Source: Candidatus Omnitrophota bacterium (GTDB lineage: Bacteria > Omnitrophota > Omnitrophia > Omnitrophales > Aquincolibacteriaceae). From it: a DNA stretch of 64,000 bases. The stretch's first letter is position 1, and each line of letters opens with the position of its first letter. The stretch spans positions 4,553 through 68,552 of the forward strand of contig JACPXM010000024.1 in NCBI GenBank assembly GCA_016196545.1. Direction: 5' to 3'. The position numbers and the translations under genes are program-made. The notes beneath the pieces were generated by a model, which saw only the letters and a program-made list of their open reading frames with translations, was not told the DNA's origin and searched no databases. Below are positions 15,348 to 61,081 of the stretch, piece by piece.

Positions 15348-16715
15348 TTATAAGTCCTTATAAAAGATCACCCGATTTCGGCCCTCTTCTTTTGCCCGAT
15401 AGAGGGCCTTGTCGGCAAATTGGATTAATTGCAATGCAAGTTCGGAAACGGGTATTCGAGCCAAATCATTGCCTCCATCTGTTGGAAACAACGCGCCACC
15501 GACGCTTACCGTGACTTTAGTTTTATCCGCAAGAATTTCAAAATGATGCCGCGCAATGCTGGAACGTATTCTTTCGGCAATTTCCATCGCCACTTCCGGC
15601 TTGGTTTCCGGAATGGCTACAATGAATTCCTCTCCGCCATACCGGGCAAGAATATCGACCTGTCGTAAACTTTCTCTTAAAAGAGATGCCACTTGACGAA
15701 GGGTGGCATCTCCTGTCAAGTGGCCGTGGTCGTCATTATATCGTTTGAAATGATCAATGTCTAACATTAATACTGCCAAGGGGAAGCGATAATTTATACT
15801 TCGTTTAAGTTCTTCTTCAAAACGCTCGAGGAAATGCCTTCGGACAAAAAGTCCGGTCAAGCCGTCACGAATGGAAAGTTCCTTAACCTCATCATAGAGC
15901 CGAATCTTCTTAATTTGTAACGCGAGGAATGAGGCTAGGACTTCGAATTTCGCCAAATCATCGGATTCGGCACCTTGAACCGTGAGGCCCGACTTTAAAT
16001 CCTGTATTTGCGACAAGGGAAAAAACCAAGTTTTGTCCCCCTTGGCTATTTTCTTGCCTCCTTGGGGTTCGTCCAAAAAAATTCTTTCTTCCGCAGATAA
16101 GAGATTTAAATTACGCTCCGCAATCACACCCTGCAAGGAGATATTGAAAATAAGAACTGGTGATTCTTCCGATTTTGTCTTGACCATTAACTTCATTTGC
16201 TGAAAGGGCAGAACGGGCATCACTTTGCGAAAAAGTTGATCCGCCACGGCACCAAAACTTAGAACCTCACCAAAATCACGGGCCAGCTCGAAGAGATCAA
16301 GGAGGCTTGTTACCTGCTTTTCCAAATGGCGAAGGCTTTCAAGACGTGCTTGATGCTTTTGTTTTAAGAGGTCTAGTTGCTCCAGGACAAATCGCGCAGA
16401 GGCGGTTTCCATTCCAAGCAAGCCCGCCCAATAATTGCGATATCGCACAAGAACGAAAAAAAGGGCGAGCCCTAGAAGGATGAGCGTAAGAACCTCGCCC
16501 GTCAGTCGATAGAAAAAAACCCCGAAAAAAGCAGCCGACAGAAAAAAAAGGCCTACCCAGAAAAGGAAAAGGTCGCGTTTCCAATAAGGATAAAAAAGCG
16601 GGAAGATAAGCAGGGGAGAAAGACAAAAAGGGTAAAGCGCGGGACCTTTTCCGACAAGCCACAAGATCCCTGCGAAGAGAAGCAAAAAGACAAAGTTTAA
16701 GAGCCGGAAATACAT
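15348..16715 (-). CDS. Membrane-anchored diguanylate cyclase (GGDEF)
   Basis: About 4 N-terminal TM helices and a C-terminal GGDEF domain (DGLTGLFVRRHF, DIDHFKRYND, RYGGEEF). An RxxD I-site (RQVD) sits exactly 5 residues before GGEEF. Confidence 0.85.
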   Translation of the reverse strand: MYFRLLNFVFLLLFAGILWLVGKGPALYPFCLSPLLIFPLFYPYWKRDLFLFWVGLFFLSAAFFGVFFYRLTGEVLTLILLGLALFFVLVRYRNYWAGLLGMETASARFVLEQLDLLKQKHQARLESLRHLEKQVTSLLDLFELARDFGEVLSFGAVADQLFRKVMPVLPFQQMKLMVKTKSEESPVLIFNISLQGVIAERNLNLLSAEERIFLDEPQGGKKIAKGDKTWFFPLSQIQDLKSGLTVQGAESDDLAKFEVLASFLALQIKKIRLYDEVKELSIRDGLTGLFVRRHFLERFEEELKRSINYRFPLAVLMLDIDHFKRYNDDHGHLTGDATLRQVASLLRESLRQVDILARYGGEEFIVAIPETKPEVAMEIAERIRSSIARHHFEILADKTKVTVSVGGALFPTDGGNDLARIPVSELALQLIQFADKALYRAKEEGRNRVIFYKDL

Positions 16716-18154
16716 ACCTGATTTCTTCCTGAGCGTTTTGCGCGATAAAGGGCTTGGTCTGCAAACTTAATTAACTCTTCAAGGTCAAGGGAATCCTCGG
16801 GCATGCTGGCGATGCCCATAGAAACCGTCACTTGCACCTTGTCTCTGCGAACCGTAATCGGAGATTCCTCGGTTTGTTTACGAATTCTTTCCCCGATTTG
16901 CAATGCCTCTTTTTTATCAATTTCTGGCAGTAAAACAACAAACTCTTCGCCTCCATATCGAGCTGCAAGCGCACTTTTGTCTTTCAAGGAGGCAAGGATT
17001 TTTGCAAAATGAACCAGCACCATGTCCCCCATGGCATGTCCCATTTTGTCATTGATTCGCTTAAAATGATCAAGGTCGCACATTAAAACAGAAAGCGGCC
17101 GATGCGTCATAAGCGCCCTCTGATGTTCGTCCCTAAAACGCTCATAAAAATGGCTACGCACAAAGAGTGCGGTCAAGGAATCACGAATGGCAAGCTCTTT
17201 TGTTTTCTCATAAAGCTGTGCGTTAAAAAGAGCAGAGGAAGACAACACTGCAATCGTATCCAGGAGTCGCAAATCATCATTGGAAAATTGATCCGGCTGT
17301 ATCGATTGAAGACGCAAGGTCCCGGCAGCCCTTCCACCATGAATCAGGGGGGCGATAATGAGGCTTCTCACGTCTTTGAGCTTGATGACTTCATGGGCAT
17401 CGAATCGGAAATCCTGCTGGGCATCGGAGATGATCAATCGCCTTCTATTTTTTAGAGCCCATTGATCGTAGAGATCCCCCTCCTGCCTTTTTTTTGACTT
17501 GATTTCAGAATTCGCAGCGTATTGTGCAACCACGAGAGGAAATGAATTTTGATTTTCAGCAGGACTCAAAAAAGTCAAAATCGCGCCGTCCCCTTTTGCA
17601 ATGAAGTGATAGGTCTTCTCAACCACAGCTTTTGAAATCTCTGAAACCAGAAGGGAGGTTGCAAGCTCTTCGGCAAGTCGCCTGAGATTGTAATAGGTCG
17701 AGTATTTTTCGAAGAGGATGCTGATCCCTTCTCCCTTCACTTTATAGGACAGCTCAAGGTCATTTTTTTCATTCACGGCTTTTTCCCGGTCCACGGCCAA
17801 AACCGCAATCTGTTCAAGGTATTCTTGATCCAGAAAATGCAAAAAAAGGAGCAAAAAAGCATACGCGACAATATGCCACAGATAGAACGCGGACGCCGTG
17901 AAGGAACAAATAAAAAGGATAATCAGACTTGTCAGCCCCACGGTTACAAGACCCCCGGGCAGACGAAATGCAAACCAACTCGCAAGAATTGAAAACATAT
18001 AGCCGGTTAATCCCAGAGATATTTGGATGAGATAATATTCTGGAGTGAGGGATGATTTTAAATAAGAAAGGTGAAGAAAAATTTTCTGCGTCAGGAGAAA
18101 AAAAAGAACAGCCGCTGCACCAACACTGATTCGCTTAAGGGTAGCAGCCCCCAT
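16697..18154 (-). CDS. Membrane GAF-GGDEF diguanylate cyclase
   Basis: N-terminal TM helices, a central GAF-like region (RSLIIAPLIHGGRAAGTLRLQS...) and a GGDEF domain (DSLTALFVRSHF, DLDHFKRIND, RYGGEEF). No RxxD motif lies at the I-site position. Confidence 0.85.
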   Translation of the reverse strand: MGAATLKRISVGAAAVLFFLLTQKIFLHLSYLKSSLTPEYYLIQISLGLTGYMFSILASWFAFRLPGGLVTVGLTSLIILFICSFTASAFYLWHIVAYAFLLLFLHFLDQEYLEQIAVLAVDREKAVNEKNDLELSYKVKGEGISILFEKYSTYYNLRRLAEELATSLLVSEISKAVVEKTYHFIAKGDGAILTFLSPAENQNSFPLVVAQYAANSEIKSKKRQEGDLYDQWALKNRRRLIISDAQQDFRFDAHEVIKLKDVRSLIIAPLIHGGRAAGTLRLQSIQPDQFSNDDLRLLDTIAVLSSSALFNAQLYEKTKELAIRDSLTALFVRSHFYERFRDEHQRALMTHRPLSVLMCDLDHFKRINDKMGHAMGDMVLVHFAKILASLKDKSALAARYGGEEFVVLLPEIDKKEALQIGERIRKQTEESPITVRRDKVQVTVSMGIASMPEDSLDLEELIKFADQALYRAKRSGRNQVCISGS

Positions 18155-18158
18155 AAGC

Positions 18159-19268
18159 TCAGAAAATGGCAGCTTCCGTTTTGGGATCGAAGAAGTGAGC
18201 CTTGCTCATATCAAATACAATTTGAAGGTCCTGATTGACAGTGGCAGTGTCCTGATTGGTGACCCGGGCCACAAAATTATTGGTGCCCGCATTGAGGTAA
18301 AGGTAAATCTCTGAGCCCATGGGTTCTACCATATCCACCGTTGCCGTGATGGTAAATTCAGGGCGGGCGTCTTGAGCAAATATTTTGTCGTAAATATCTT
18401 CCGGACGAATGCCAAAAATGACATCCTGATTCTTATAGGGCGATATTTTTGAATGATGCTGGGGCAGAAGCCTTAATCGAATTCCTTTGTCCTGAAAGAA
18501 ATAGTCTCCATTTTGTTTTGCGATTTTCCCATTCAAAAAATTCATCGGCGGCGAACCGATGAATCCCGCCACAAATTTATTGGCAGGGTTTTCATAAATA
18601 TTGACGGGGTCGGAGGTCTGTTGAATGGTTCCCGACTTCATGACCACAATGCGATCTCCAAGCGTCAGCGCTTCCACTTGGTCATGCGTTACATAAATCA
18701 TGGTACTTTGAAGGCGATTATGCAATCGCTGCAATTCCATGCGCATCTGAACCCTTAACTTCGCATCCAGATTGCTTAAAGGCTCGTCAAATAAAAAGAC
18801 TTTGGGTTTTCGAACAATCGCCCTTCCCACGGCGACCCGCTGCCTTTCGCCGCCGGAAAGTTCCTTGGGTTTTCGTTTCAGCATATTGGAATGGATCAGC
18901 CCCAAAATTTCCGCAGCTTCATGAACGCGTCGTTCGATTTCTTTTTTGGGATAGCGCCGAAGCTTAAGGCCAAAGGCCAGATTTTCATAAACCGTCATAT
19001 GAGGATACAGGGCGTAATTTTGGAACACCATGGCAATATCCCGGTTCTTAGCGGGAACATCATTAACGATGAGATTATCAATTAAGATCTCCCCTTCGCT
19101 GATTTCTTCAAGACCCGCGACCATTCGAAGCGTCGTTGATTTTCCACAGCCGGAAGGACCGACTAAAACGACGAATTCTTTATCGGAGACTTCAAGGTTG
19201 ACATTGCGAACTGCATTCACATGGTTGGAGTAGAACTTGCTAAGATTTCGTAAAACAACGGTGGCCAT
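18159..19268 (-). CDS. ABC transporter ATP-binding protein, MalK/UgpC/MsmK type
   Basis: Walker A GPSGCGKST, signature LSGGERQRVAVGRA, Walker B VFLFDEPLS, plus a MalK-like C-terminal regulatory (TOBE) extension. No permease or binding protein is adjacent. Confidence 0.85.
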   Translation of the reverse strand: MATVVLRNLSKFYSNHVNAVRNVNLEVSDKEFVVLVGPSGCGKSTTLRMVAGLEEISEGEILIDNLIVNDVPAKNRDIAMVFQNYALYPHMTVYENLAFGLKLRRYPKKEIERRVHEAAEILGLIHSNMLKRKPKELSGGERQRVAVGRAIVRKPKVFLFDEPLSNLDAKLRVQMRMELQRLHNRLQSTMIYVTHDQVEALTLGDRIVVMKSGTIQQTSDPVNIYENPANKFVAGFIGSPPMNFLNGKIAKQNGDYFFQDKGIRLRLLPQHHSKISPYKNQDVIFGIRPEDIYDKIFAQDARPEFTITATVDMVEPMGSEIYLYLNAGTNNFVARVTNQDTATVNQDLQIVFDMSKAHFFDPKTEAAIF

Positions 19269-20201: not shown

Positions 20202-20281
20202 GAGCTAGGAATGTCAATTAAATTCTAACTAATTGCAGTATATAGCTTTACAACAATGAATGAAAATGCTATTGTTTGCGC

Positions 20282-21718
20282 ATGGAAACACGGCTTACCC
20301 AGCAGCAATCCCAGAAGCTCGTTTTATCGCCTCAAATGAGGCAATACCTCCGTCTGCTTCAACTTCCTGTAGCAAATTTGGAGCAAGCCATCGACGAGGA
20401 AATGAGCCAAAATCCCCTTCTCGAAGAAAAAAGCACGCCGCAAGAAGAACTCCCCCAAGACGGCGAATCTCAAAGCAAGCCTGAAAAAACCGAGGAAGTT
20501 TCTCTGGGAGACTCTTATGATCGAATCGATGAAATTGACAATTATTATGACCCCTCTGAAAATCGTTTTGAAGATCGCTTAGCGGACCCCTCAGACCTTC
20601 AGAAAAAGAAGACGTTTCAAGATTCCCTTCTTACACGACCTCAGGCCTTGTCGGATTTCCTTTTGTGGCAAATTCGATTTCTTGATTTTTCGGAAGATCA
20701 AAAAAAAATCGCTGAGGAAATCATCGGAAATATTAATGAAGACGGCTACCTGTCCATTTCCTGCGAGGAGCTTTCAGAATCCCTTCATAAAACCAAAGAA
20801 AATGTCGAAGGCATCTTAAAGTCCATTCAAACTTTAGAACCTCCCGGCATTGCCGCCCGAAATTTACAAGAGGCTTTGCTCCTTCAATTAAAAAAATTGA
20901 TTTCGCCCTCTCCCCTTGCGGAAAATATGGTCAAAGAGCATCTTTCCCTCCTTGAAAAACAAGCCTATGATCAACTCTCCAAGATTTATGCGGTGGATCT
21001 TGAAACGGTCAAAGAGGCCGTCCATCAGATTTCACGTCTGGATCCAAAGCCAGGCCGAAGTTTTTATTCCGAAGAACCGATTGCCATTAAACCCGATGCG
21101 AGCGTTTTTGAGTCCGATGAGGACGATGCAAAATGGGAAATTGAAATTCATGAGGAATCCTTGCCCAGGCTTCGTGTCAATCCTTATTATCGCCATTTGC
21201 TTCGTAAGAAAGGAACGGATGAAAAGACACGCGCCTTTATTCAAATCAAGCTTCAAAAAGCACAGGAGTTTTTGCAAGCCTTGCTTTTGCGTAAATCCAC
21301 CTTACGAGAAATTACCCAAGAAATCGTGAAACATCAGGATGAATTTCTGCGAAAAGGTTTCGGATATTTAAAACCGCTTCGGCTGAAAGATATTTCGGGA
21401 GCCTTAAGTATTCACGAGTCTACCGTCAGCCGCGCCGTCCAAAATAAATATATTTCAACGCCGCAAGGCACGATCCCGTATAAAAGTTTTTTTTCAAATC
21501 GTTTGGATACGCTGGAAGGCGAAGAAGAAGTTTCGCAAAAAAGTATTACACATCGAATTCGACATATGATCGATTCCGAAAATCCTGCATCCCCCTTAAG
21601 TGATCAGGAGATTGCCGAAAAACTGCTTCAAGAAGGGGTGAAAATAGCCCGGAGGACCGTTGCGAAATACCGCGACATCCTTAAAATCCTTCCCTCCCAT
21701 TTGAGGAAGCACAAATAA
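20282..21718 (+). CDS. rpoN: RNA polymerase sigma-54 factor
   Basis: Gln/Leu-rich region I (LTQQQSQKLVLSPQMRQYLRLLQLP), an acidic region II, a HTH and the RpoN box ARRTVAKYR near the C-terminus. The ORF track starts at a TTG at 20276. The ATG at 20282 gives the typical N-terminus. Confidence 0.9.
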   Translation: METRLTQQQSQKLVLSPQMRQYLRLLQLPVANLEQAIDEEMSQNPLLEEKSTPQEELPQDGESQSKPEKTEEVSLGDSYDRIDEIDNYYDPSENRFEDRLADPSDLQKKKTFQDSLLTRPQALSDFLLWQIRFLDFSEDQKKIAEEIIGNINEDGYLSISCEELSESLHKTKENVEGILKSIQTLEPPGIAARNLQEALLLQLKKLISPSPLAENMVKEHLSLLEKQAYDQLSKIYAVDLETVKEAVHQISRLDPKPGRSFYSEEPIAIKPDASVFESDEDDAKWEIEIHEESLPRLRVNPYYRHLLRKKGTDEKTRAFIQIKLQKAQEFLQALLLRKSTLREITQEIVKHQDEFLRKGFGYLKPLRLKDISGALSIHESTVSRAVQNKYISTPQGTIPYKSFFSNRLDTLEGEEEVSQKSITHRIRHMIDSENPASPLSDQEIAEKLLQEGVKIARRTVAKYRDILKILPSHLRKHK

Positions 21719-23828: not shown

Positions 23829-24623
23829 TCATTGGAAGAACACCGAGACTTTTTGAGTCTCCTTTAAAGCGCCCCTTTCTTTGGCAGAACCATTCGGAAA
23901 AGCAATCTCAAGCTGACCGGCGCTGCTCCAGAGGGCCTTGAGTCCCGCCTTACCCTTCCCATAAGTTTCGCAGAGGGGGCCAATATTTTTATGGTTGACG
24001 TAAACTTTTCCTTTTTTCCAAAACGATTCCGGGGCATCGCTCCGACGGATATTCGTGATCGCATTTCCGAAATGATCAAAATAAATAATTTCGCCGCGAA
24101 TCGTCTTCGCCTCCTTGGTAAGTGCAGGGGAATGAACGCGGCGAAAGCTTTTCAGCGTTCTTCCCAATCGATTAAAAATTTTTTCCGAGTCGCGATTTGC
24201 TAAATGAGCTCCCACCGCAGAAAATATATCGCGCCCATGAAACGTTGAAGAAGGGGAGGACGTTAAAAAAAATCTTATATTCTCAATATGCCGAAGGGAT
24301 AAAATCTTCTCATGCTGCAACGCCAGGCTCAGCAAACCGTTGTCCGGAGCTACAAAGTAATAGCGGGATGTTTTCACCGCAATGGCCTTGCGTGAGGTCC
24401 CAACCCCGGGATCGACGACGCAAACAAAAATGGATTTTTGAGGAAAATACGAATAACTGATTTCAAGGAGGCAAGCGGCTTGAAGAATATTCTGAGGGGC
24501 AATTTCATGACTTAGATCAATCACGGGTGTCCCAGGGGCAAGGCTTTCAATGACGCCTTTCAAAACACCCACATAATGGTCTTTAAGTCCGAAATCCGTT
24601 AAAAGAACAATGGGCCGTCTCAT
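23829..24623 (-). CDS. SAM hydroxide adenosyltransferase family protein (DUF62, chlorinase/fluorinase-like)
   Basis: N-terminus IVLLTDFGLKDHYVGVLKGVI, plus VVDPGVGT and APDNGLLS motifs, is typical of the DUF62 SAM-cleaving family. Confidence 0.7.
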   Translation of the reverse strand: MRRPIVLLTDFGLKDHYVGVLKGVIESLAPGTPVIDLSHEIAPQNILQAACLLEISYSYFPQKSIFVCVVDPGVGTSRKAIAVKTSRYYFVAPDNGLLSLALQHEKILSLRHIENIRFFLTSSPSSTFHGRDIFSAVGAHLANRDSEKIFNRLGRTLKSFRRVHSPALTKEAKTIRGEIIYFDHFGNAITNIRRSDAPESFWKKGKVYVNHKNIGPLCETYGKGKAGLKALWSSAGQLEIAFPNGSAKERGALKETQKVSVFFQ

Positions 24624-25405
24624 GCATTCGAAATTTCTGATTCAGGACGCCCTTCGGTTTCAAGCCAGCGGTCCGGCCTCTTGATTTTACGTTCATCAGG
24701 ATCAAAAACATGAATACAGTTACGGCCAGCCCGTTTGGACTCAAGTAAGGCGGTATCCGCCCAGCGTATCAAATAATCCTGATCCACCGTTCCCGTAGAG
24801 TATTCGGTAATGACTCCCATGCTGATCGTCACATGAAAGGATTCTGTCGGAGAAAATTTGACAAGAAGATCGGGATTCACTTCAATACTTTTTCTAATTT
24901 TTTCGGCAAGACGAACGGCCCTCGGCAAATCAAGCCCCGGCAAAATGACGCAAAATTCGTCCCCCCCATATCGAAATATCGGAGATTTATCATCTAAATG
25001 TTCCTGCACCACCTCGGCCACTTTTTGCAGAATGTGATCCCCCATTTGGTGACCGGCTAAATCATTGATTTCTTTGAATTGATCAAAATCGTACATGATC
25101 AGCGAAAATACGTCCTTCGCCTTTTGGTCCTTATGCACTTCTTTGGAGAGCCATTGCATTAAATAAGTCCGGTTATAGACGCCGGTCAAAGGATCCACGA
25201 TGGCAAGGTGCTCCATCCTTTGATAGGAACGCTTCAACCTTTTTTGATAATCCTCTAAAATCGTATTCACGGACTCCATTCTTTTTTTGAGCAAAAATTC
25301 TTGCAATCGATATTTTTCGTTGAGATGCGCCCCCACGGTCACAATGAGAAAAAAAAGCATCAAATAAACATTACTTTTTAAGAAGGTGCTATTGGTGACC
25401 GGCAT
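24620..25405 (-). CDS. Diguanylate cyclase (GGDEF) with a single N-terminal TM helix
   Basis: DPLTGVYNRTY, YDFDQFKEIND and RYGGDEF motifs. Its ATG overlaps the TAA of the upstream 4-5-TM ORF (TAATG). Confidence 0.85.
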   Translation of the reverse strand: MPVTNSTFLKSNVYLMLFFLIVTVGAHLNEKYRLQEFLLKKRMESVNTILEDYQKRLKRSYQRMEHLAIVDPLTGVYNRTYLMQWLSKEVHKDQKAKDVFSLIMYDFDQFKEINDLAGHQMGDHILQKVAEVVQEHLDDKSPIFRYGGDEFCVILPGLDLPRAVRLAEKIRKSIEVNPDLLVKFSPTESFHVTISMGVITEYSTGTVDQDYLIRWADTALLESKRAGRNCIHVFDPDERKIKRPDRWLETEGRPESEISNA

Positions 25406-25815
25406 TAGAAAATGAGCGCGTAAATCACATATTGATCCCGCGCGGCTTGTCCCCCGAGCAAAATAATGCCCAAATTATAGACGCCGATAAAGCACGCCAG
25501 CACAAAGGCAAACGCATAGATGTCCTTTCGGAATTGATGAACAAAGGTAAGTCCCAAATAAATAAGAAGCGTGACTTCCATCAGAGCCGTCAAGGTCATA
25601 ACCCGCGACGGGTTTTGAAACGAAGAGGAGAAATAATCGATCATCGAAATCAGAGGAAAGAGAATAAGGAAGATGGAAAGGCAAATCCGAAAGCGAGAAA
25701 CCGCGATCTGCTCCATTGAACCTTCAAACTGGGCAACGAGCTGAGAGGAACCGTCAGCGTCTCCTGCGTCCTGGCGCTCAATCATTTTGACAAAATCTTG
25801 CGTATTTTTCTTCAT
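25405..25815 (-). CDS. Small polytopic membrane protein, possibly the detached sensor/anchor module of the downstream GGDEF
   Basis: 136 aa with about 4 TM helices after a roughly 40-aa acidic N-terminus. The stop overlaps the GGDEF start by 1 nt. Confidence 0.5.
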   Translation of the reverse strand: MKKNTQDFVKMIERQDAGDADGSSQLVAQFEGSMEQIAVSRFRICLSIFLILFPLISMIDYFSSSFQNPSRVMTLTALMEVTLLIYLGLTFVHQFRKDIYAFAFVLACFIGVYNLGIILLGGQAARDQYVIYALIF

Positions 25816-46798: not shown

Positions 46799-47530
46799 TC
46801 AGGCGGCTTGAAATTCTACGGCTAGTCCGAGCTGCTTTTTTCGCAATTCAATACGGTTGATTTTTCCATCCAGCTGATACTCTTCGGGGAAATTAGCGCT
46901 CGGGAACACATGAATCGATACCTTGAGTCCGGCTGGATTCACGAGGGCCTCGATTTTTTGAGCCGCTTCGAGGTCAATATATTCCGCAAAAAGCCCCCCC
47001 TCGCTGATATTGGTCGCAATGGCCCGCGTCTCAATAGGGGTTTTGCCGTTCTCTACGAATATTTTAAAGTCAATCGGAAGCGCCACGTGCATGCGTTTGC
47101 TACGCCGCCTCTCTACCTCATGGCCTGGATGAACACTGCCTTGTTTAGACGTCTCCATGGGAAAAGTTTTTTCTTTTTCTTTTTCCAAGAGAAAGGGACC
47201 TAAATCTTCCGCGACTTCCTTCTCGCTCTGGCAAATTTTTACATTGTGGGGCAAATAGGTACTCTCCAAAAAGGTTGTAACATTGCGCGAGGCGCCAAAA
47301 ATCAAACTTTTTTGAGGCCGTATGCAAGCCGCCAAAAGCTTTCTCACTCCCAAGGGATCCAAGGAAGGCAACCTTTGCAGGTTGAGAATGACCCTCTGAA
47401 GCCGATGCCGGCGTATATTGCGCTGGATTTTCCACGCAATTTCTTGGAGGGACTCTTGGGTGGGATCTCCCTCAAGATCAAAAACACACACACTCCCTAT
47501 TTCTCGGGTACTCACTTTTAATTTACTCAT
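46799..47530 (-). CDS. STAS-like domain / PilZ domain protein (c-di-GMP receptor)
   Basis: The N-terminal ~110 aa are STAS/anti-sigma-antagonist-like (VFDLEGD...VILNLQRLPSLDPLGVRKLL). The C-terminal PilZ domain has intact RRSKR (RxxxR) and NISEGG (D/NxSxxG) motifs. Confidence 0.75.
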   Translation of the reverse strand: MSKLKVSTREIGSVCVFDLEGDPTQESLQEIAWKIQRNIRRHRLQRVILNLQRLPSLDPLGVRKLLAACIRPQKSLIFGASRNVTTFLESTYLPHNVKICQSEKEVAEDLGPFLLEKEKEKTFPMETSKQGSVHPGHEVERRRSKRMHVALPIDFKIFVENGKTPIETRAIATNISEGGLFAEYIDLEAAQKIEALVNPAGLKVSIHVFPSANFPEEYQLDGKINRIELRKKQLGLAVEFQAA

Positions 47531-48278
47531 GAAGATGATTCCTTCCTTTCTCTAAAAGGCCCGTTTGGTCAACCCAATTTCCAATTTTAATTTTTGTCGT
47601 ATCATGCAATTCCATAAACTCGACTCCAACTCCCCCGCCACCGGCCGGCCGATGAATGACCTTTCCATCAAGCGAAAGAATTTCTCGAGTATTTAAAAAT
47701 AATTGCAACCGGACAATCTGAACATCTTGCACGTCGAGCTCGGCGAGTTGTTTCTCAGAACGCGATTCCACAAAGCGGGCATAAAGCCCGCCCTCGCTCA
47801 AATTCGTGACTACCGAAAAAAGGGAATGAGATTTTCCCTCTTCACTTTCATAGTTCAAAAATAAGGGCAGGGCGGTTTCAAGACGTCCGTACCTGCGTTT
47901 TTCGGTCCAGGGATGGGATTCGGTTTTGACCCACTGTGCGAATTCACGGGAAAATTGAAAGGCGCAGGCTTCCCATTTGTCCAAGATAGGGATTTTCTGG
48001 TTTTTATCTTCGAGACGGATGCTATCGGTAATATAATGATCGTGCGCCATAACCACGCATTGATCGGCTTTTTCCGCGAGGCGCAAAATAAGCTGAGTGC
48101 CATGGACGTCGATTTGGTAAAGCTCCTCGGTATTAAGGAGGATATGACGCGATTGATTTTTTTCGAGAATTTCGCGAATAGCACGGCCACATATAGGGGC
48201 AAAGTTTCCGGACAAATCTCCAATGAGTTCGAAGATTTCCACCACGCCAACCCTCTTATGGATCAGTTTGCTTTGCAT
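47523..48278 (-). CDS. STAS-like domain / PilZ domain protein (paralog)
   Basis: Same architecture as its neighbour: VEIFELIGDL...ILLNTEELYQIDVHGTQLIL, then PilZ RRYGR and NLSEGG motifs. It overlaps the downstream paralog by 8 nt. Confidence 0.75.
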   Translation of the reverse strand: MQSKLIHKRVGVVEIFELIGDLSGNFAPICGRAIREILEKNQSRHILLNTEELYQIDVHGTQLILRLAEKADQCVVMAHDHYITDSIRLEDKNQKIPILDKWEACAFQFSREFAQWVKTESHPWTEKRRYGRLETALPLFLNYESEEGKSHSLFSVVTNLSEGGLYARFVESRSEKQLAELDVQDVQIVRLQLFLNTREILSLDGKVIHRPAGGGGVGVEFMELHDTTKIKIGNWVDQTGLLEKGRNHLHE

Positions 48279-54068: not shown

Positions 54069-55805
54069 TTAAGACCGATTTTGAATTTCCTGCTTAAGAT
54101 TCTCAATCACCGTATTCAGAGCTTGAGGTCCCAAATCTTGCTTGCCGCGTTTTCGCACGGCGACCTGATTCGTTGCGGCTTCCCGATCGCCAATCACGAA
54201 AATGTAGGGGATTTTTTGAAGCTCTGCCTCTCGAATTTTGTGGCCGATTTTTTCATCGCTCAGATCGCTATCGGCACGAATTCCGGAGGACTGAAGGAAG
54301 GCCATGACTTTCTCGGCGGCCTGAAGCTGTTTTTCTGAAATCGTCGTGACTCGGACTTGAACCGGCGAAAGCCATAAGGGAAAGGCACCGGCATAATGTT
54401 CGACCAAGACCCCATAAAATCTCTCCACCGAGCCAAAGACCGCACGGTGCACCATCACCGGACGCCTAAATTTGTTATCTCGGGCAACATATTCCAAATT
54501 AAATCTCTCCGGCATTTGAAAATCAAGTTGAATGGTGCCACATTGCCAATCCCGTCCGATGGAATCGGTGATTTCAAAATCGATTTTGGGGCCATAAAAG
54601 GCACCGCCTCCTTGGTGAACCGCAAATTCAATTTTATTATTTTGAAGCGCCCTTTGCAAAGCTTCGATGGCCTTTTGCCAGATTTCATCGGAGCCCATGG
54701 AATCCTTGGGTCGTGTGGAGAGGCTGATATTCACTTCTTGAAATCCAAAGGTTTTGTAGACCCTCAAAATCAGCGCAATGCACTTTGAAATTTCAGTCTC
54801 AATTTGTTCTTCCGTACAAAAAACATGAGCATCATCAATGGTAAAGGCATTCACGCGAAAAAGACCGTGCATCACACCGGATAATTCCCGGCGATGGACC
54901 AAACCTAATTCCGCAAGCTTCCAGGGAAGCTCACGGTAAGAGCGCTGGGCTGAGCGGTAAACCAAAGTACTTCCCGGGCAATTCATGGGTTTTACCGCAT
55001 AACTGCCATCCGCCACTTTCGAAAAAAACATATTTTCTTTATAGTGATCGTAGTGCCCGCTCTGATGCCAAAGCTCATCTTTCAAAAGCACGGGGGTTTT
55101 TATTTCCTGATACCCTTCTTTAAGATGCTCCTCTCGCCAAAATGAGATGAGCTGATCATACAAAATCATCCCCTTCGGATGATAAAAGGGCATTCCCGGA
55201 GCTTCTTGATGAAAACTGAAAAGGTCAAGTTGCTTGCCAAGCTTGCGATGATCCCGCCTTTTCGCCTCTTCAAGACGGTTTAAATAGCCGTCGAGCTCCT
55301 TTGGAGTGAAGAAGGCCGTCCCATAAATTCTTTGAAGCATGGGGTTGCGTTCGCTTCCCCTCCAATAAGCCCCCGCAACCGAGAGGAGTTTAAAGGCAAC
55401 GGCTTCCTCGGTATTATGAATATGATTTCCGCGACAAAGATCAATAAAGGAACCGTTTTGGACGAATGTGATTTCTCCATCTTTCAGTTCGCTTAAGATT
55501 TCAAGCTTATAATGCTCTTCACGCTTTTTAAAAAACTCTTCAGCCTCGGATTTGCTTACAGGGCGCTGTTGAAATTCTTGGCGTTGGCCAACAATTTCCT
55601 GCATTTTTTGCTCCAAACGCCGCAAATCGTCTTCCGTGAATGCCTCGCGGCGGTCAAAATCATAATAGAAGCCATCTTTAATGGCAGGTCCTATCGCTAA
55701 TTTTGTCCCGGGGAATAAGGCTAATACGGCCTGGGCGAGAATATGAGCACAAGAATGCCGAAGTCGCGTGAGCGCTTCTTGGCTGGAGCTAACCATACTT
55801 TGCAA
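54069..55805 (-). CDS. thrS: Threonine--tRNA ligase (no TGS domain)
   Basis: It starts directly in the second-additional/editing domain (LRHSCAHILAQAV), followed by the class II core and an anticodon-binding domain. The 578-aa length and the 95-nt upstream gap leave no room for an N-terminal TGS domain. Confidence 0.9.
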   Translation of the reverse strand: MQSMVSSSQEALTRLRHSCAHILAQAVLALFPGTKLAIGPAIKDGFYYDFDRREAFTEDDLRRLEQKMQEIVGQRQEFQQRPVSKSEAEEFFKKREEHYKLEILSELKDGEITFVQNGSFIDLCRGNHIHNTEEAVAFKLLSVAGAYWRGSERNPMLQRIYGTAFFTPKELDGYLNRLEEAKRRDHRKLGKQLDLFSFHQEAPGMPFYHPKGMILYDQLISFWREEHLKEGYQEIKTPVLLKDELWHQSGHYDHYKENMFFSKVADGSYAVKPMNCPGSTLVYRSAQRSYRELPWKLAELGLVHRRELSGVMHGLFRVNAFTIDDAHVFCTEEQIETEISKCIALILRVYKTFGFQEVNISLSTRPKDSMGSDEIWQKAIEALQRALQNNKIEFAVHQGGGAFYGPKIDFEITDSIGRDWQCGTIQLDFQMPERFNLEYVARDNKFRRPVMVHRAVFGSVERFYGVLVEHYAGAFPLWLSPVQVRVTTISEKQLQAAEKVMAFLQSSGIRADSDLSDEKIGHKIREAELQKIPYIFVIGDREAATNQVAVRKRGKQDLGPQALNTVIENLKQEIQNRS

Positions 55806-55996: not shown

Positions 55997-56169
55997 GAGA
56001 TCTTCCTTTCAAACTCAAAGTGAGCCCTAGAGATATCACAGGTTTCGCCTTATTTCAACTCTTTTCATGGACACTGGTTAGAGGAATTTCAGAGCGACTA
56101 AGATTTCTTCAAAAAAAGGTGTTTGAAATTCATCAAATTGCCGATTATCTTTAATACTATACGAGGTCC

Positions 56170-57393
56170 ATGAGATTAAAGATGCTTTCTTGGTTTCAAA
56201 AAAAAGAAAAATCACTTAAGATCGAGACGCCAAAGCCAGTCTCCTCTGCCGAAAAAAGAAGAGCAGTGCGCATTTCCTCGGCATCGGTTCGCTTTACCCT
56301 TCGTTCTAAAGGCGAGCCTGTTTCCAATTGTGAGCTTGCGGATATGAGCACTCTCGGAATCGGTATTTATCTCGACCAGGATCCCGAAGATACTGAGGCA
56401 ATCTTTTCATTTCATGAACCCGATACGCTTGCGGGCCTTGAATTAAAAGCTCAAAAGGTACGAACCTTTACAAAGGCAAGGCCCAACGGAAAGGAAGGTT
56501 TTCTTGTTGGCTATGAATTTCTTTTCCATTCTCCCGACCAGCAGCAGCAACTCATCCGATGGCTTGTGACTCAGCTCCAGGAGGAATCCGAAAAACTGGA
56601 TCTAAAGCAGGAAATTAAGCCTTCTTACAGCGCATCCTTTTATCTCGATCCCTCCACCCAGCTTGACATTCGCATGCCGGAAAATTCTGAAGAGTATGAG
56701 CAGGCTTTATCTCTCATTACCGGTTTATCCGTCTATCATGCCCTCTCGCATACTAAGTTTTTTATTGCAATTCACAAAGGAGAAGTCGCGGCATTGATTC
56801 CTCTCATTCCCGACACGGTGCCTTTCAAGCTTCAAGCGGATTCTCTTTATCACGAGCATTTGAGTTCCCTGCGATCTATGAATCGTCAACTTGGGCAAAT
56901 CGGAGCTCCTTATTTCAAGGAAGATTTAAAATTTTTCCGGAATCCTGCTACCGCTCACCTTCATAAATTAAAGCTTCTATTCTCTTTGATGCCTCATGTG
57001 ATTACCTACGCAAAAAACTTTGCCCATTTAACGGATCTTGTATCCCTTGTCCCCCCTCATCTTGAGGAGTTTTATCGCCTTTGGATGTTTCGTGAACTGG
57101 GAGAAGATGCAAAATATATCGATTTGAAATCCCATCAAATCCGAAAAGGCTATCGGTTGATGTGCCTGGACTTAAAAGAATTTCATGAAAAAATGGGCCA
57201 GACACGGCCCGAGCTTGAAACCACCGTCGTTCGATTTTTGAGGGATCCAGCGCTCTTAAAGCATTTTGAGCACAGCTATTTTCCCGAGGTAGAATTGATC
57301 CAAAAATGGTTCAAAGAAAAAAATAATGTCCTGCAGAATCTAACGCAAGAACAATGCGCTTACTTTAAGACCCTTTACCCCACCCTCGTCTGA
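56170..57393 (+). CDS. PilZ domain protein with a C-terminal GNAT-like (N-acyl amino acid synthase/FeeM-like?) domain
   Basis: The N-terminal PilZ domain has RRAVR (RxxxR) and DMSTLGIG (DxSxxG). The C-terminal ~250 aa (IRMPENSEEYEQALSLI..YH, FIAIHKGEVAALIPL, LKLLFSLMPHVITYAKNFAHLTDLVSLVPPHLEEFYRLWMFRELG, GYRLMCLDL) resemble the acyltransferase pattern ...V.P.H..FY....F...G. The C-terminal call is an inference. Confidence 0.6.
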   Translation: MRLKMLSWFQKKEKSLKIETPKPVSSAEKRRAVRISSASVRFTLRSKGEPVSNCELADMSTLGIGIYLDQDPEDTEAIFSFHEPDTLAGLELKAQKVRTFTKARPNGKEGFLVGYEFLFHSPDQQQQLIRWLVTQLQEESEKLDLKQEIKPSYSASFYLDPSTQLDIRMPENSEEYEQALSLITGLSVYHALSHTKFFIAIHKGEVAALIPLIPDTVPFKLQADSLYHEHLSSLRSMNRQLGQIGAPYFKEDLKFFRNPATAHLHKLKLLFSLMPHVITYAKNFAHLTDLVSLVPPHLEEFYRLWMFRELGEDAKYIDLKSHQIRKGYRLMCLDLKEFHEKMGQTRPELETTVVRFLRDPALLKHFEHSYFPEVELIQKWFKEKNNVLQNLTQEQCAYFKTLYPTLV

Positions 57394-57451: not shown

Positions 57452-57528
57452 GGGCAGTTAGTTCAGCTGGCTAGAACGCTTCCTTGACATGGAAGAGGTC
57501 ACAGGTTCAAGTCCTGTACTGCCCACCA
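57452..57528 (+). tRNA. tRNA-Val (anticodon GAC), CCA encoded
   Basis: Hand-folded: acceptor GGGCAGT/ACTGCCC, D arm GTTC-AGCTGGCTA-GAAC, anticodon stem CTTCC/GGAAG with loop TTGACAT, T arm ACAGG-TTCAAGT-CCTGT, then A-CCA. Confidence 0.9.
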
Positions 57529-57902: not shown

Positions 57903-58235
57903 TCATTTGGCATGCTCATACTGAATATAGGCCATTAAGGCTTTCATTTGCTCGCTATCTTCGGCGATGGCTTTGCCTTTGGACTTATTCACCAGATACT
58001 TATTTAGGGTCAGGGGCAGCTTGTCGCCTAATTTAACGAGCATGGATTTTTTGACCGCTTTATCGCTTTTGTGGCACATAATGCACGCATACTTGACGCC
58101 TAAGCCCTCTTTGGTATTGAAAAGATTCCTTCCTTGGGCGACAAGCTCGGGGGACGGCGCATCTTCCGCATGGCAAACCAATGAATTTAGCATGACGACA
58201 ACGATTAAAATAAGAGTGCTGACGCGCGGGTGCAT
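57903..58235 (-). CDS. Periplasmic monoheme c-type cytochrome
   Basis: 110 aa with a signal peptide and a single CIMCH heme-binding motif. Downstream Met residues are available as the sixth ligand. Confidence 0.75.
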   Translation of the reverse strand: MHPRVSTLILIVVVMLNSLVCHAEDAPSPELVAQGRNLFNTKEGLGVKYACIMCHKSDKAVKKSMLVKLGDKLPLTLNKYLVNKSKGKAIAEDSEQMKALMAYIQYEHAK

Positions 58236-58250
58236 ATAGGCCTCCGTTTG

Positions 58251-60326
58251 CTAGCCCCAATGAATCATTGATTTTAACGACACTAAATGAGCATTGTAAT
58301 TGCCCGTATCCGCCAAAGGATTGGCACGATAGTGATAATAAACGTATTCCGGCTCTAAACTGAGATACTCGTTGACCGTCCAACGAAGTCCCGCAGAAAT
58401 ATCCATGAGGATAAAATCAGTTCCCAAAGGCAAACCGATGCTCGTAAAATCATCGAAATTGTTTGCCCGCGTAAGATGCAGACCGTTTGATAATGCTATC
58501 GAGTCTGTGATGTCCCATTGGGTATTCACGAACCAACTTGTGTGATTTGCATTGAAGCGTGGTGTCTGTGCCACCGCAGCCGAGCTGGCTGGTGTATCGA
58601 CCCAAGCCTGTTGACGGGATACGGAGGAAAGAATCAAGAATCGCTGAATCGGTTGAAGTGTGACATCCCAAGTGAAGATGTGGCTATTCATATCGGTTTG
58701 AACCGTTTCCTGATTTTCGACGCGGCTTAAATAATCGCGCGCTTGAAGCTGATACCGAAAGGCGCTTTGAAACCAGCGGCAAGGACGGATGGAAATTTCC
58801 TCCATGAGTTCCGAGGTCGCAATGTTGAGTTCGTCAAAAAATGCGGACCGCGCCGTGGTTCCCGTCGAATCGGTTTCCCGTTTGTCGTCATAATCATTGT
58901 GATTGCGATGAATTCGCAGATGCGATTTCAAATGAACCCTTGCAATCGGAGCAATATGGGCCCCGAGTGTCCATATCCCCCGCCGAATCCAGGTGATCGT
59001 TTCACGGCTAAAGATTTCATTCGCATTCGCTACCGATTGGGCCCGAATGCTGGTTCTGTCCTCGCTCAGCCAATTTTTGATCTGCTCAAATTCGAATTCG
59101 TTATAAATCGCGGTTCTCGGGATTGCGGTGAAACGAATATGAAAGGCCTCGCCCCATTGCCCCACCTTATTGTCATTGCGGCTTAGTTCTGTGGTATTGA
59201 TCTGGCCGTCCGGTGTTCCCAAGGCCGTTGTGATATCGTTCGGATAAGAGGAATTTCCGTGTCTTTCGATGGCCTCTGTTTTGAGCTTTCCCGTCAAGGT
59301 CAGCCATTTCCACGGAGTCACCCTAATATTTTCAACCCACGTGTGGGCATCATAGTCATTATCCGCCCGGGCATTTCGAATTTGTTTGGGATTCCCAAAA
59401 TTAAACGGAGTCCCCCGCTCATTGAGTTCGAAAATGTTTTCCATCTCTTGACTCTTGAGATGAAGAAAATGATAGGCAGCACCCGCAAAAGTTTTCTCTT
59501 CTTGAAACCATTTCTCGGCGCTTAAGGTAGTTGTCAGTACCGTTGATTTCGGAACCTGATCCTGAACCCGGATACGTCTGTTTTGCAAATTGGCAACATT
59601 GGTCGAGAGCCCCTTTTCCTCCCGGGAGAGTTCTGCGCTTTCGATCTCCCAGCTCTGCTCGCCCTTAAGGAGCACCCCCTTGATTTCTTTTTCTGCGCGA
59701 AGCGTAAAAGTATCTATCGATTCGTCGATTTGTTGCCACGAGGGTCCAATATTTCGCGTGAGCCCGCCGACAATCACAGGTGTCCACGTTAACCGGGATT
59801 TTGTCCCATCCTTAAACCGGTGTTCATACAAAAAAACAATGTGAGGCCAATCTTCCACAGTGAGTCCCGTCTCCACGCTGAAGCGTCCGATATCGAGCTC
59901 TAATTCCCGGTCGAGATCGTTCACGAATAATTCCGGAAAAGGATGATAAACGCCTCCCGAATCATCATAAAAATGGCTGAATTCTTTATACCGGATCTGG
60001 ACATATCCAAGATTTTTCTTCTCAATATCCGCTTGAAAGTCGTAATCATTATCCTGAACAATGAATCGACCTTCTAAATCCGCAGCAATTTCTTCAGAAA
60101 GATTCTCTTCTTCGACTTTAATCTCATCCGCGCCACCCCCATAGCCTTCTCGAAACCAATGGTGTTCCCTGAATTTTTCCTCATCTCCCTGAACAAAAAT
60201 ATAGCGCAGGGGCTGAGCCTCGAGAGAAACCGGTGAAGAATCCGCCCAAACCTGTTTTAAAAAAAGCACCGCCAACGCGCCAAAAAGTACGACTCCAAAT
60301 TTTCTATCACGATTTCTTAGCCTCAC
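58251..60326 (-). CDS. Large outer-membrane beta-barrel protein, MtrB/PioB/MtoB-like porin candidate
   Basis: 691 aa with signal peptide ...LFLKQVWA-DSS and aromatic/Gly/Asn/Thr/Arg-rich alternating beta-strand-like sequence throughout. There are no hydrophobic helices. Its start lies 3 nt downstream of the octaheme cytochrome stop, and its size is close to MtrB (about 700 aa). Confidence 0.55.
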   Translation of the reverse strand: MRLRNRDRKFGVVLFGALAVLFLKQVWADSSPVSLEAQPLRYIFVQGDEEKFREHHWFREGYGGGADEIKVEEENLSEEIAADLEGRFIVQDNDYDFQADIEKKNLGYVQIRYKEFSHFYDDSGGVYHPFPELFVNDLDRELELDIGRFSVETGLTVEDWPHIVFLYEHRFKDGTKSRLTWTPVIVGGLTRNIGPSWQQIDESIDTFTLRAEKEIKGVLLKGEQSWEIESAELSREEKGLSTNVANLQNRRIRVQDQVPKSTVLTTTLSAEKWFQEEKTFAGAAYHFLHLKSQEMENIFELNERGTPFNFGNPKQIRNARADNDYDAHTWVENIRVTPWKWLTLTGKLKTEAIERHGNSSYPNDITTALGTPDGQINTTELSRNDNKVGQWGEAFHIRFTAIPRTAIYNEFEFEQIKNWLSEDRTSIRAQSVANANEIFSRETITWIRRGIWTLGAHIAPIARVHLKSHLRIHRNHNDYDDKRETDSTGTTARSAFFDELNIATSELMEEISIRPCRWFQSAFRYQLQARDYLSRVENQETVQTDMNSHIFTWDVTLQPIQRFLILSSVSRQQAWVDTPASSAAVAQTPRFNANHTSWFVNTQWDITDSIALSNGLHLTRANNFDDFTSIGLPLGTDFILMDISAGLRWTVNEYLSLEPEYVYYHYRANPLADTGNYNAHLVSLKSMIHWG

Positions 60327-60328
60327 GA

Positions 60329-61081
60329 TTAATACCTCAAATGGTCGTCAAAATTGGAGCCGTGAACCGCGGTATGACAGCCGGCGCTAAAACAGGTTCC
60401 CTGCGGAAGTCGTCCGCCATGCCCTTGTCGGCCGATGATCGGGAAATTCATCTGGGTGTGACATCTCAAACACAACATATTGTCCCGCGCAACCAACATC
60501 TTTGCATGAAGCGACCCATGAACCTGATGGCAAGTCGTGCAACCTTCGCGCACCGCTTCATGCTCCCAAACAAAAGGACCCTTTTGCTCTTTATGGCAAT
60601 GGAGGCATGCCTCGTTAATTCCGGAAAGTGTCGTTGCCGACCACGGCCTGACATCCGCCCCATGCGCACTATGGCAATCGCTACAACTCATCTTCCCTTC
60701 TAAGACAGGATGATGGGAAGGCAATTGAAATTGGAATTTTTTATCTGTGTGGCATGTAAAACACGAGGAAGGATTTGTCTTGGGATTGACAATGTTATCC
60801 GTGCCTCCCCCCTTATCGACATGCAAACTCGCCGGCCCATGGCACATCTCGCAACCATGAACTTCAGATTTTCCCTCGGGGATATCGATTCTGGAGTGAG
60901 TCGATTGTAAAAATTCTTTAGCTTCCTTTTCATGGCATGCGGCACAGGATTCAGAACCCACAAATGCAGCGCCCTTGGCATCGAGAGATTGAAAAGGGAA
61001 CCTATCTTTTGGGTTCTCCCCGAGCAAGGGTGAACAGAATAGAAAAAGCATCAGAATAAAAGGATATCGCATGTATAACAA
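60329..61081 (-). CDS. Periplasmic octaheme c-type cytochrome (MtrA/MtoA/OmaB-like)
   Basis: 250 aa with a signal peptide. There are seven CxxCH motifs (C46, C77, C107, C133, C159, C181, C204) plus one CxxxxCH (C230-C235-H236), about one heme per 29 residues. The C-terminal CH..VHGSN signature is as in MtrA/DmsE/NrfB-type multihemes. Confidence 0.8.
   Translation of the reverse strand: MLYMRYPFILMLFLFCSPLLGENPKDRFPFQSLDAKGAAFVGSESCAACHEKEAKEFLQSTHSRIDIPEGKSEVHGCEMCHGPASLHVDKGGGTDNIVNPKTNPSSCFTCHTDKKFQFQLPSHHPVLEGKMSCSDCHSAHGADVRPWSATTLSGINEACLHCHKEQKGPFVWEHEAVREGCTTCHQVHGSLHAKMLVARDNMLCLRCHTQMNFPIIGRQGHGGRLPQGTCFSAGCHTAVHGSNFDDHLRY

Follow-up and report, generated by a model that had tools for sequence, protein, structure and literature searches.

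The window protein (the window being the whole 64,000-nucleotide, or 64-kb, stretch of Candidatus Omnitrophota DNA that was analysed) contains a PilZ domain and a FeeM-type acyltransferase domain in a single polypeptide, a pairing confirmed here well beyond chance. It is encoded by a complete CDS (56170..57393, + strand), an ORF running from ATG to TAA and comprising 407 codons plus stop, in which PilZ, FeeM-like and helical-extension segments follow one another. The protein is 100% identical to P0001, recorded as 'PilZ domain-containing protein [Candidatus Omnitrophica bacterium]'. An earlier note on this DNA had read the gene as that of a c-di-GMP-gated N-acyltransferase. Its domain assignment stands, whereas direct gating of N-acylation by c-di-GMP is weakened for the window protein because Gln243 replaces the catalytic Glu, and the concept had already been published for Nas343 and Nas354. 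The pairing of PilZ with a synthase of N-acyl amino acids (NAS) is likewise not new, as it appeared in a 2016 paper with the two domains in reverse order; what is new, as read from sequence alignment, is the Gln at the catalytic Glu column in a PilZ-first relative of these two enzymes. The explanation tentatively preferred here, with a little less than even confidence, is a cytoplasmic three-module PilZ–tether–NAS protein in which N-acylation would be switched by c-di-GMP, a domain-order permutation of Nas343/Nas354.

Domain architecture of the window protein

The polypeptide begins with an N-terminal tail (residues 1-27; 56170..56250, +) that is predicted to be disordered (pLDDT <50) and is poorly conserved, with 12-46% identity among relatives and most of it missing in the homologs P0006 and P0007. 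The PilZ domain follows (residues 28-132; 56251..56565, +). It matches Pfam PF07238 with 25.2 bits against a gathering cut-off of 22.5, and PilZ was matched in all six close homologs (best E 7.4e-7), each of which carries both domains. The two c-di-GMP motifs named in the earlier note, RRAVR and DMSTLG, were both found: the RxxxR motif as R30-R-A-V-R34 (56257..56271, +) and the D/NxSxxG motif as D58-M-S-T-L-G63 (56341..56358, +). R30, R34, S60 and G63, all belonging to these contact motifs, were found to be the sole invariant columns among 38 PilZ-N-FeeM proteins, and position 58 is occupied by Asp in 44 and by Asn in 11 of 64 occupied rows. In the AF2 model the domain is a beta-barrel with strands between residues 41 and 118 and pLDDT mostly >90. 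Its Foldseek matches include the c-di-GMP-bound PilZ domain of YcgR (5y6g, TM 0.68) as well as MrkH, MotI and 4xrn. The PilZ domain is predicted as a likely binder of c-di-GMP.

The inter-domain tether (residues 133-164; 56566..56661, +) consists of the end of a post-PilZ helix (residues 122-145) and then a disordered stretch, with pLDDT <50 at residues 146-157 in the AF2 model and 3-56% identity in distant family pairs. It leads to the FeeM-type GNAT core (residues 165-335; 56662..57174, +), which was identified by both Pfam and Foldseek. Residues 187-317 match PF21926 (FeeM) with 42.9 bits against a gathering cut-off of 27 (E 5.5e-11), the sole enzyme family matched in Pfam, and the family profile matches the FeeM chain 2g0b. 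The same structure, the nearest one solved, takes all of Foldseek ranks 1-6 (TM 0.72-0.76, E down to 2.2e-9); next come PilZ structures with bound c-di-GMP and, after these, the AHL synthase EsaI. Thus, the C-terminal domain has both the GNAT-like fold and the profile match that the earlier note had expected of it. The C-terminal strings to which that note had pointed, FIAIHKGEVAALIPL, LVPPHLEEFYRLWMFRELGE and MCLDL, are present and lie on conserved columns of the FeeM-like family. The core is also the best-conserved segment between P0001 and its sister P0002, with 77% identity in proteins that are 70% identical overall. The near-invariant core residues D215, R235, P296, Y302 and F307 are retained in the window protein, and D215, R235, Y302 and F307 are common to it and FeeM. 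The AF2 model as a whole has a mean pLDDT of 83.7, with both domains mostly >90; given its disordered tether and its pTM of 0.64, it defines no interface between PilZ and the enzyme module.

The chain ends in a C-terminal helical extension (residues 336-407; 57175..57390, +), which is predicted to form five helices between residues 338 and 402 (pLDDT 81-94). The extension is specific to the family: it occurs in 134 of 144 core-bearing representatives, is absent from short FeeM-like proteins, and corresponds to region 200-278 of Nas354.

Other acyltransferase families were searched for as well. The two that the earlier note had suggested, PF13444 (Acetyltransf_5, OlsB-like) and TIGR03694 (PEP-CTERM/exosortase-associated acyltransferase), gave no match in the window protein at E up to 10, leaving PF21926 as the one that matches. 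LuxI-type AHL synthases likewise gave no Pfam match at E up to 10, and EsaI and BjaI rank far below FeeM.

Substitutions in the acyltransferase core

Gln243 (codon CAA; 56896..56898, +) lies in the column of the catalytic Glu, that is, Glu103 of Nas354 and Glu95 of FeeM, the role of the latter being taken from the account of it in the Nas354 study (PMC4897644). In Nas354, Glu103 is needed for activity, and the E103A variant is inactive (PMC4897644). The column was located by three sequence-alignment methods (profile versus 2g0b, MAFFT and BLASTP) and holds Glu in 141 of 146 occupied rows; Gln was found only in P0001, P0002, P0012 and P0015. P0001 and P0002 are nested in a Glu-bearing clade. 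A sequencing error was ruled out by the presence of the same Gln in an independent assembly (P0002, locus L010, 70% identity). The E-to-Q change in P0012 is apparently independent, suggesting that the change is tolerated. Gln is unable to serve as a general base, and catalysis by the window protein is uncertain. A second substitution, Gln222 (codon CAA; 56833..56835, +), lies in the column of a near-invariant Pro in the 'GLPMD' motif; 136 of 150 representatives have Pro there, and within the Omnitrophota clade the column varies. In addition, T209, P193 and H298 set the whole clade apart from the wider family.

In the preferred explanation, a c-di-GMP-binding PilZ beta-barrel would be joined by a flexible tether to a long-chain N-acyl amino acid synthase module of the FeeM/TyzA/OxzA type, made up of the GNAT core and the family-specific helical extension. 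c-di-GMP formed by the GGDEF cyclases of the organism would bind to RxxxR and DxSxxG, order the N-terminal arm and shift the seating of PilZ against the acyltransferase module. This shift would switch a reaction in which acyl-ACP or acyl-CoA donates a fatty acyl group to the amine of an amino acid, and the product would be an N-acyl amino acid lipid or surfactant. Because Gln243 stands in place of the general-base Glu, slow or altered acyl transfer, or a base-independent acceptor, would be expected in the Gln243 lineage rather than a robust FeeM-like enzyme. The restriction of invariance to the c-di-GMP contact motifs and the presence of three GGDEF cyclases in the window count for this explanation, as do the two Pfam matches, the FeeM-like fold, the activity of published enzymes built from the same modules, the recurrence of the architecture, the strong conservation of the FeeM-like core in the two Gln243 proteins with its other near-invariant residues kept, and the apparently independent change in P0012. 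Gln243, the lost GLPMD Pro (Q222), the clade differences T209/P193/H298, the lack of nearby partner genes and the lack of a defined PilZ-enzyme interface count against it.

The substitutions may also mean that catalysis has been lost altogether. A pseudoenzyme, in which PilZ binds c-di-GMP and the FeeM-like module is non-catalytic and kept for ligand binding or protein interaction, is a possibility of real but minority weight. Its ligand would be acyl-ACP, acyl-CoA or an N-acyl amino acid or lipid, and the protein would couple c-di-GMP to lipid status or sequester the ligand. Glu-to-Gln is a classic isosteric inactivating change, here in a column that is nearly always Glu and where replacement by Ala inactivates Nas354, and Pro222 has gone too. 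Strong constraint persists on the fold and on the remainder of the domain, at the 77% identity given above, which is the usual sign of a pseudoenzyme with a retained binding function, and biosynthetic or export partners are missing nearby, in contrast to the distant relatives. However, the sisters P0003-P0007, which occupy the same syntenic position as the window gene, keep the Glu, and differing roles for one gene are not parsimonious. Beyond this, no decay of the catalytic site sets the Gln pair apart, and general-base mutants of many GNATs retain some activity. The narrower claim that the window protein and its 70% sister are c-di-GMP receptors whose pseudo-acyltransferase output would have kept the acyl- or lipid-binding pocket and would serve to sense acyl-ACP or N-acyl amino acids, or to sequester them, is doubtful. 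If true, it would represent a new type of c-di-GMP effector and a link between the messenger and lipid status, at a fixed locus in an Omnitrophota clade.

Comparison with known systems

What relates the window protein to known systems, and what sets it apart? Nas343 and Nas354 are metagenomic N-acyltyrosine synthases in which a NAS domain is followed by a C-terminal PilZ domain (Thies 2016, Sci Rep 6:27035, PMC4897644). Judged by their published layout, they share with the window protein a FeeM-type NAS core, a region of ~80 amino acids and a PilZ domain in one polypeptide. Nas354 was found to make N-acyltyrosine in E. coli, and its region 200-278 was reported to resemble no known structure (PMC4897644). 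Unlike in Nas354, PilZ is N-terminal in the window protein and Gln243 takes the place of the essential Glu103. A product has been shown for Nas354 (N-acyltyrosine), whereas the window protein is known from its sequence. Two PilZ-last proteins, P0056 and P0155, align to residues 186-403 of the window protein with 25% identity, the extension included. Control by c-di-GMP was proposed for Nas343 and Nas354 rather than demonstrated (PMC4897644), and no demonstration of such control for any NAS was found in the literature.

FeeM shares ~17-25% identity with the window protein, in which the equivalent of its Glu95 is Gln. Unlike the window protein, FeeM is a single domain of ~190 amino acids with neither PilZ nor the C-terminal helical extension. 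TyzA (M. tuberculosis Rv2336) and OxzA (Pseudoalteromonas rubra) are the acyltransferases of acyl-oxazolone pathways, and TyzA is a FeeM-fold enzyme that N-acylates Tyr and Phe (PMC10404671). Compared by description, TyzA and OxzA resemble the window protein in their FeeM-like fold and N-acylate aromatic amino acids; unlike the window protein, no PilZ domain is described for them (PMC10404671).

A sensor of a nucleotide second messenger on an acyl- or acetyltransferase of the GNAT superfamily is also known from NasP and Rv0998/MtPat (PDB 4ava). NasP is a cAMP-activated NAS, as far as it is cited in the Nas354 study (PMC4897644). Rv0998 (4ava) is a weak structural match to the window protein, at Foldseek rank 49. 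In NasP and MtPat the messenger is cAMP and the sensor domain is a different one, and MtPat acts on a protein lysine. HfsK of Caulobacter crescentus is reportedly a c-di-GMP effector of the N-acetyltransferase family whose function is controlled by direct binding of c-di-GMP. To our knowledge, HfsK has no PilZ domain and belongs to another acyltransferase family than the window protein.

Polysaccharide synthases, motility and transcription are known to be gated by c-di-GMP. For Nas354 it was proposed that the messenger directly controls an acyltransferase that forms a lipid or surfactant, with no demonstration in the literature. The window protein and its Glu-bearing sisters provide a natural pair, Gln243 versus Glu243, for both the need for the Glu and gating by c-di-GMP. 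Should the family prove active, lipids of the N-acyl amino acid or acyl-oxazolone type would join the outputs of c-di-GMP signalling, which would be of moderate importance.

Gene neighbourhood, synteny and family

The gene stands alone between thrS (54069..55805, - strand), an ORF that is its divergent and conserved upstream neighbour, and tRNA-Val(GAC) (57452..57528, +), the conserved downstream neighbour on the same strand, which was detected by both ARAGORN and Rfam. This setting had been described in the earlier note from the sequence, and the ORF list and tRNA detection bear it out, as does the scarcity of + strand features, with only two ORFs on that strand among the 41 in the window that reach 200 amino acids. 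A weak sigma-70-like promoter match (9 of 12 positions; 56123..56151, +) lies upstream of the CDS. In the region around the gene, promoter and terminator sites were no commoner than in shuffled sequence, and the terminator scan gave no terminator-like site between the stop codon and tRNA-Val. At Rfam gathering thresholds the whole window contains three tRNAs only; neither the 364-bp spacer between thrS and the gene nor the rest of the window gave a match to a riboswitch or another kind of RNA element. The neighbours in the window include thrS/infC, a multihaem cytochrome, Ham1, RNase PH and a radical SAM protein. By neighbour annotation and tblastn, no ACP or lipid genes, and none for PlsC/OlsA-like proteins, ThiF, nitroreductase or exporters, were found near the window gene.

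Across Omnitrophota, the gene keeps its place between thrS and tRNA-Val. The thrS-infC-rpmI-rplT-pheST cluster is divergent from the homolog in loci L001 and L002, as judged by called genes, and thrS is likewise so in L010. In L003, from Ca. Taenariivivens baikalensis, where neighbours were judged by ORF size and order rather than by Pfam annotation, the ORFs match in both respects and the same tRNA-Val follows the homolog. A genome scan with alignment A1 led to one species-representative genome. There is no evidence of a functional link between the gene and tRNA-Val.

Beyond this clade, the pairing of PilZ with the long FeeM module is recurrent, forming a family of about 50 representatives at 50% identity that are mostly PilZ-first. 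The family numbers 224 hits in all; among 150 family representatives, 46 were found to be PilZ-first and two or three PilZ-last. The neighbourhoods of distant relatives are richer in candidate partners than that of the window gene. In L004, PilZ-FeeM paralogs occur together with a PlsC-type O-acyltransferase, a MacB/FtsX exporter and a LolA-like protein, and in L004 and L007 ThiF-nitroreductase genes adjoin the PilZ-FeeM relatives. When the L004 partner proteins were compared with the window by tblastn, a generic ABC ATPase was the only match.

The L004 set of O-acyltransferase, exporter and LolA-like protein suggests an envelope lipid as product. This fits a membrane aminolipid N-acyltransferase of the OlsB/GlsB kind, whose chemistry and GNAT sub-fold would be the same as in the preferred explanation. 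The product would then be an N-acylated compound, the first intermediate on the way to a membrane lipid that contains ornithine, glycine or another amino acid, and c-di-GMP would adjust the composition of the envelope instead of acting through a secreted signal or surfactant. Such a role is improbable for the window protein: the OlsB-type family PF13444 is absent from it and is matched, like TIGR03694, by only one of 150 relatives; tblastn with the L004 PlsC protein detected no PlsC-type partner in the window; and Gln243 is equally problematic here.

The ThiF-nitroreductase genes of L004 and L007 correspond to the published Tyz/Oxz enzyme set (PMC10404671), and 132 of 150 relatives match NF011425, a 989-aa model whose length equals that of the long FeeM module plus the ThiF-nitroreductase protein and which may thus describe a fusion of the two. 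However, it is very improbable that the window protein opens an acyl-oxazolone pathway of the OxzAB/TyzABC type, in which an oxidase of the nitroreductase superfamily would desaturate the N-acyl-Tyr or N-acyl-Phe and a ThiF-like enzyme from elsewhere in the genome would cyclise it. In the window, tblastn with the L004 protein detected no homolog of ThiF or nitroreductase; none was seen among the called genes of the syntenic loci L001 and L002 or, by ORF size and order, in L003; and the window protein reaches only 14.7 bits (E 0.005) on NF011425. The distant relatives themselves are recorded under the names 'PilZ domain-containing protein' or 'hypothetical protein' only.

Domain architecture and genomic setting

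The PilZ-FeeM gene is an open reading frame of 407 codons (56170-57393, + strand), and its product is 100% identical to a Candidatus Omnitrophica MAG entry whose sole annotation is "PilZ domain-containing protein". Pfam places a PilZ domain (PF07238) at residues 28-132 (25.2 bits, cut-off 22.5) and a FeeM domain (PF21926) at residues 187-317 (42.9 bits, cut-off 27, E 5.5e-11), and detects no further enzyme family at E values up to 10; at this threshold, no match was found to the autoinducer synthase families or to PF13444 and TIGR03694, two families that the earlier note had suggested for checking. An AlphaFold2 model built with 38 family sequences as input (mean pLDDT 83.7) comprises a disordered tail (residues 1-27), a beta-barrel (41-118), a long helix (122-145), a disordered tether (146-157), an alpha/beta GNAT-type core (about 165-335) and a five-helix extension (338-402). 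[quoted passage not shown] Thus, the Pfam matches, the model and the FeeM-first ranking bear out the domain call of the earlier note, a PilZ domain joined to a FeeM-like GNAT domain. The opposite outcome, a C-terminal domain without a GNAT-like fold or profile match, or one matching a different known family, was looked for and did not occur.

The gene lies, as had been noticed from the sequence, between thrS (54069-55805, - strand) and tRNA-Val(GAC) (57452-57528, + strand), and is indeed one of very few + strand features. The genes show an extreme strand bias: the - strand carries 39 of the window's 41 ORFs of 200 aa or more (1-64000), which leaves only 20276-21718 and the PilZ-FeeM gene on the + strand. 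Genes at 57903-61081 (- strand) encode a 110-aa protein with a CxxCH haem motif, a 691-aa protein and a 250-aa multihaem cytochrome (Paired_CXXCH, cytochrome c7). The 691-aa protein has no Pfam match and a signal-peptide-like N-terminus, and is possibly an outer-membrane barrel; together, the three may make up a porin-cytochrome module for extracellular electron transfer.

All close relatives with sufficient flanking DNA (loci L001, L002, L003 and L010 of other assemblies) have the homolog divergent from thrS. There, thrS is followed by infC-rpmI-rplT-pheST in L001 and L002 and by ORFs matching in size and order in L003, where tRNA-Val(GAC) is again downstream of the homolog. This shared arrangement indicates that the locus is old and vertically inherited in the Omnitrophota clade. 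The genes around it are of the housekeeping kind and offer no hint of function. The L001 and L002 assemblies, which are independent, break soon 3' of the homolog (195 nt and 25 nt after the gene, respectively), at the position of tRNA-Val in the window and L003, which may reflect a repeated-tRNA assembly break or a variable junction.

A long FeeM module and its published counterparts

When 1.84 billion representative proteins were searched exhaustively by profile, 224 relatives had E values of 1e-3 or lower, but only 10 had 1e-30 or lower. With a limit of about 30% identity, the close family amounts to no more than a handful of metagenomic sequences, its sole carrier among 185,579 species-representative genomes scanned being the Omnitrophota MAG Candidatus Taenariivivens baikalensis. 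Among the best 150 of the 224 relatives, 143 match FeeM and 54 match PilZ in Pfam; by motif position, PilZ comes first in 46 and last in two or three, and the others are proteins of ~280 aa with the FeeM core and the same C-terminal helical extension, without PilZ. Of the 144 core-bearing proteins in this set, 134 have the extension. Because core and extension are common to nearly all relatives, the shared unit of the family is a "long FeeM" module, with PilZ added at one end or the other.

A slaughterhouse biofilm metagenome was the source of Nas343 and Nas354, which contain a FeeM-like synthase at residues 1-200, a stretch without known structural similarity at 200-278 and PilZ at 279-394 (Thies et al., 2016, PMC4897644). 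Nas354 on its own yields N-acyltyrosine in E. coli, and its E103A substitution, at the position of FeeM Glu95, abolished the phenotype (PMC4897644). Regulation by c-di-GMP was the authors' proposal only, and the precedent named for it, as cited there, is NasP, activated by cAMP (PMC4897644). These enzymes have the same modules as the window protein, with PilZ last instead of first. Two PilZ-last relatives, P0056 and P0155 (394 aa), can be aligned to residues 186-403 of the window protein, extension included, at 25% identity, and the window protein is thus a domain-order permutation of the published enzyme type. Full-text literature searches found no other papers tying PilZ to N-acyl amino acid synthases.

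The catalytic glutamate column

The catalytic Glu column of FeeM/Nas354, assigned concordantly by profile-versus-2g0b, MAFFT and pairwise BLASTP alignments, holds Glu in 141 of 146 occupied rows among the best 150 of the 224 relatives. The window protein has Gln at this column (Q243, codon CAA), as do its sister P0002 (70% identity), P0012 and P0015, the last with a doubtful alignment. In a neighbour-joining tree, the window protein and P0002 nest as a pair in a clade whose other members (P0003-P0007) retain Glu; the change in P0012 appears to be independent. Gln222 also replaces the Pro of the GLPMD motif (Pro in 136 of the best 150 relatives), at a position variable throughout the close clade. 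Assembly error is ruled out as the cause of Gln243, since P0002 stems from another sample.

Decay of the FeeM-like domain is likewise ruled out: no other segment is as well conserved between the window protein and P0002 (77% identity, versus 66% for PilZ), and the core residues D215, R235, P296, Y302 and F307 are kept. With the domain conserved and the Glu replaced, the module is under selection, yet without the classical general base. The earlier note had presented a candidate PilZ-GNAT fusion in which c-di-GMP would directly gate synthesis of an N-acylated product. Its architecture stands, whereas novelty and function were overstated, since the fusion was already published in the opposite domain order and the window copy lacks the catalytic Glu.

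Possible c-di-GMP control and products

The PilZ domain of the window protein carries both c-di-GMP motifs, R30-xxx-R34 and D58-x-S60-xx-G63. Across 38 aligned PilZ-first members (~20% identity overall), R30, R34, S60 and G63 are the sole invariant columns, which is strong evolutionary evidence for ligand binding as the selected function of this domain. The window also encodes, all on the - strand, GGDEF diguanylate cyclases at 15351-16766 and 24623-25474 and a GAF-GGDEF cyclase at 16700-18205, adjoining the first (GGDEF E-values 3e-43 to 8e-49); with these three genes, c-di-GMP signalling is clearly active in the source genome. Two small adjoining proteins are encoded beside an MgsA-like AAA+ gene (- strand): a second PilZ protein (47523-48278, 28.4 bits) and one with a weak STAS match and a PilZ-like RxxxR..DxSxxG pattern (46799-47530). 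The pairing of PilZ and MgsA is kept in L001.

Across the family, the likeliest mechanism is that c-di-GMP binding would order the RxxxR arm, the flexible tether would let the bound PilZ shift relative to the acyltransferase, and this repositioning would switch N-acylation of an amino acid from acyl-ACP or acyl-CoA, the donors of FeeM and TyzA, respectively (PMC10404671). The AlphaFold2 model (pTM 0.64) contains no confident PilZ-acyltransferase interface. In the case of the window protein, acyl transfer that is residual or altered and controlled by c-di-GMP is tentatively favoured. A pseudoenzyme that has kept ligand binding is a somewhat less probable reading. The remaining probability falls to an aminolipid (OlsB-like) or oxazolone-pathway role, which gene clusters around distant relatives bring to mind.

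PilZ-FeeM genes are clustered with other genes in two unrelated assemblies. L004 (GCA_964555945.1, CAZKUL010000006.1, 1-21203) has seven PilZ-FeeM paralogs within 21 kb (36-84% mutual identity, six compared), together with a 659-aa ThiF-nitroreductase fusion, ABC and MacB/FtsX exporters, a LolA-like protein, a PlsC-type acyltransferase, a short-chain dehydrogenase and DUF4442. It looks like an expanded locus, possibly c-di-GMP-gated, for making and exporting acyl-oxazolones or aminolipids. The second, independent cluster (L007, 2404-15742, GCA_964572155.1; also L008 and L009) contains PilZ-FeeM, a separate ThiF, a nitroreductase-ABC fusion, two MacB/FtsX, a LolA-like protein, two FAD_binding_4 oxidases, DUF1302 and two small stand-alone PilZ proteins. 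Both contain the enzyme trio of the acyl-oxazolone pathways OxzAB/TyzABC, namely a FeeM-fold acyltransferase, ThiF and a nitroreductase-superfamily oxidase (PMC10404671). None of these partners was found in the window or the syntenic Omnitrophota loci. The N-terminal part of NCBIfam NF011425 (PRK14852, a 989-aa "hypothetical protein" model) is matched by 132 of the best 150 relatives; its length, which equals that of a long FeeM module and a ThiF-nitroreductase protein combined, suggests a fusion of long FeeM, ThiF and nitroreductase, i.e., OxzA-OxzB.

[quoted passage not shown] The gene of the relative P0009 (374 aa, Glu retained; L006, 196-1678) is followed, after a 1-nt gap, by that of a stand-alone response-regulator receiver protein, which hints at two-component input as an extra control in some lineages.
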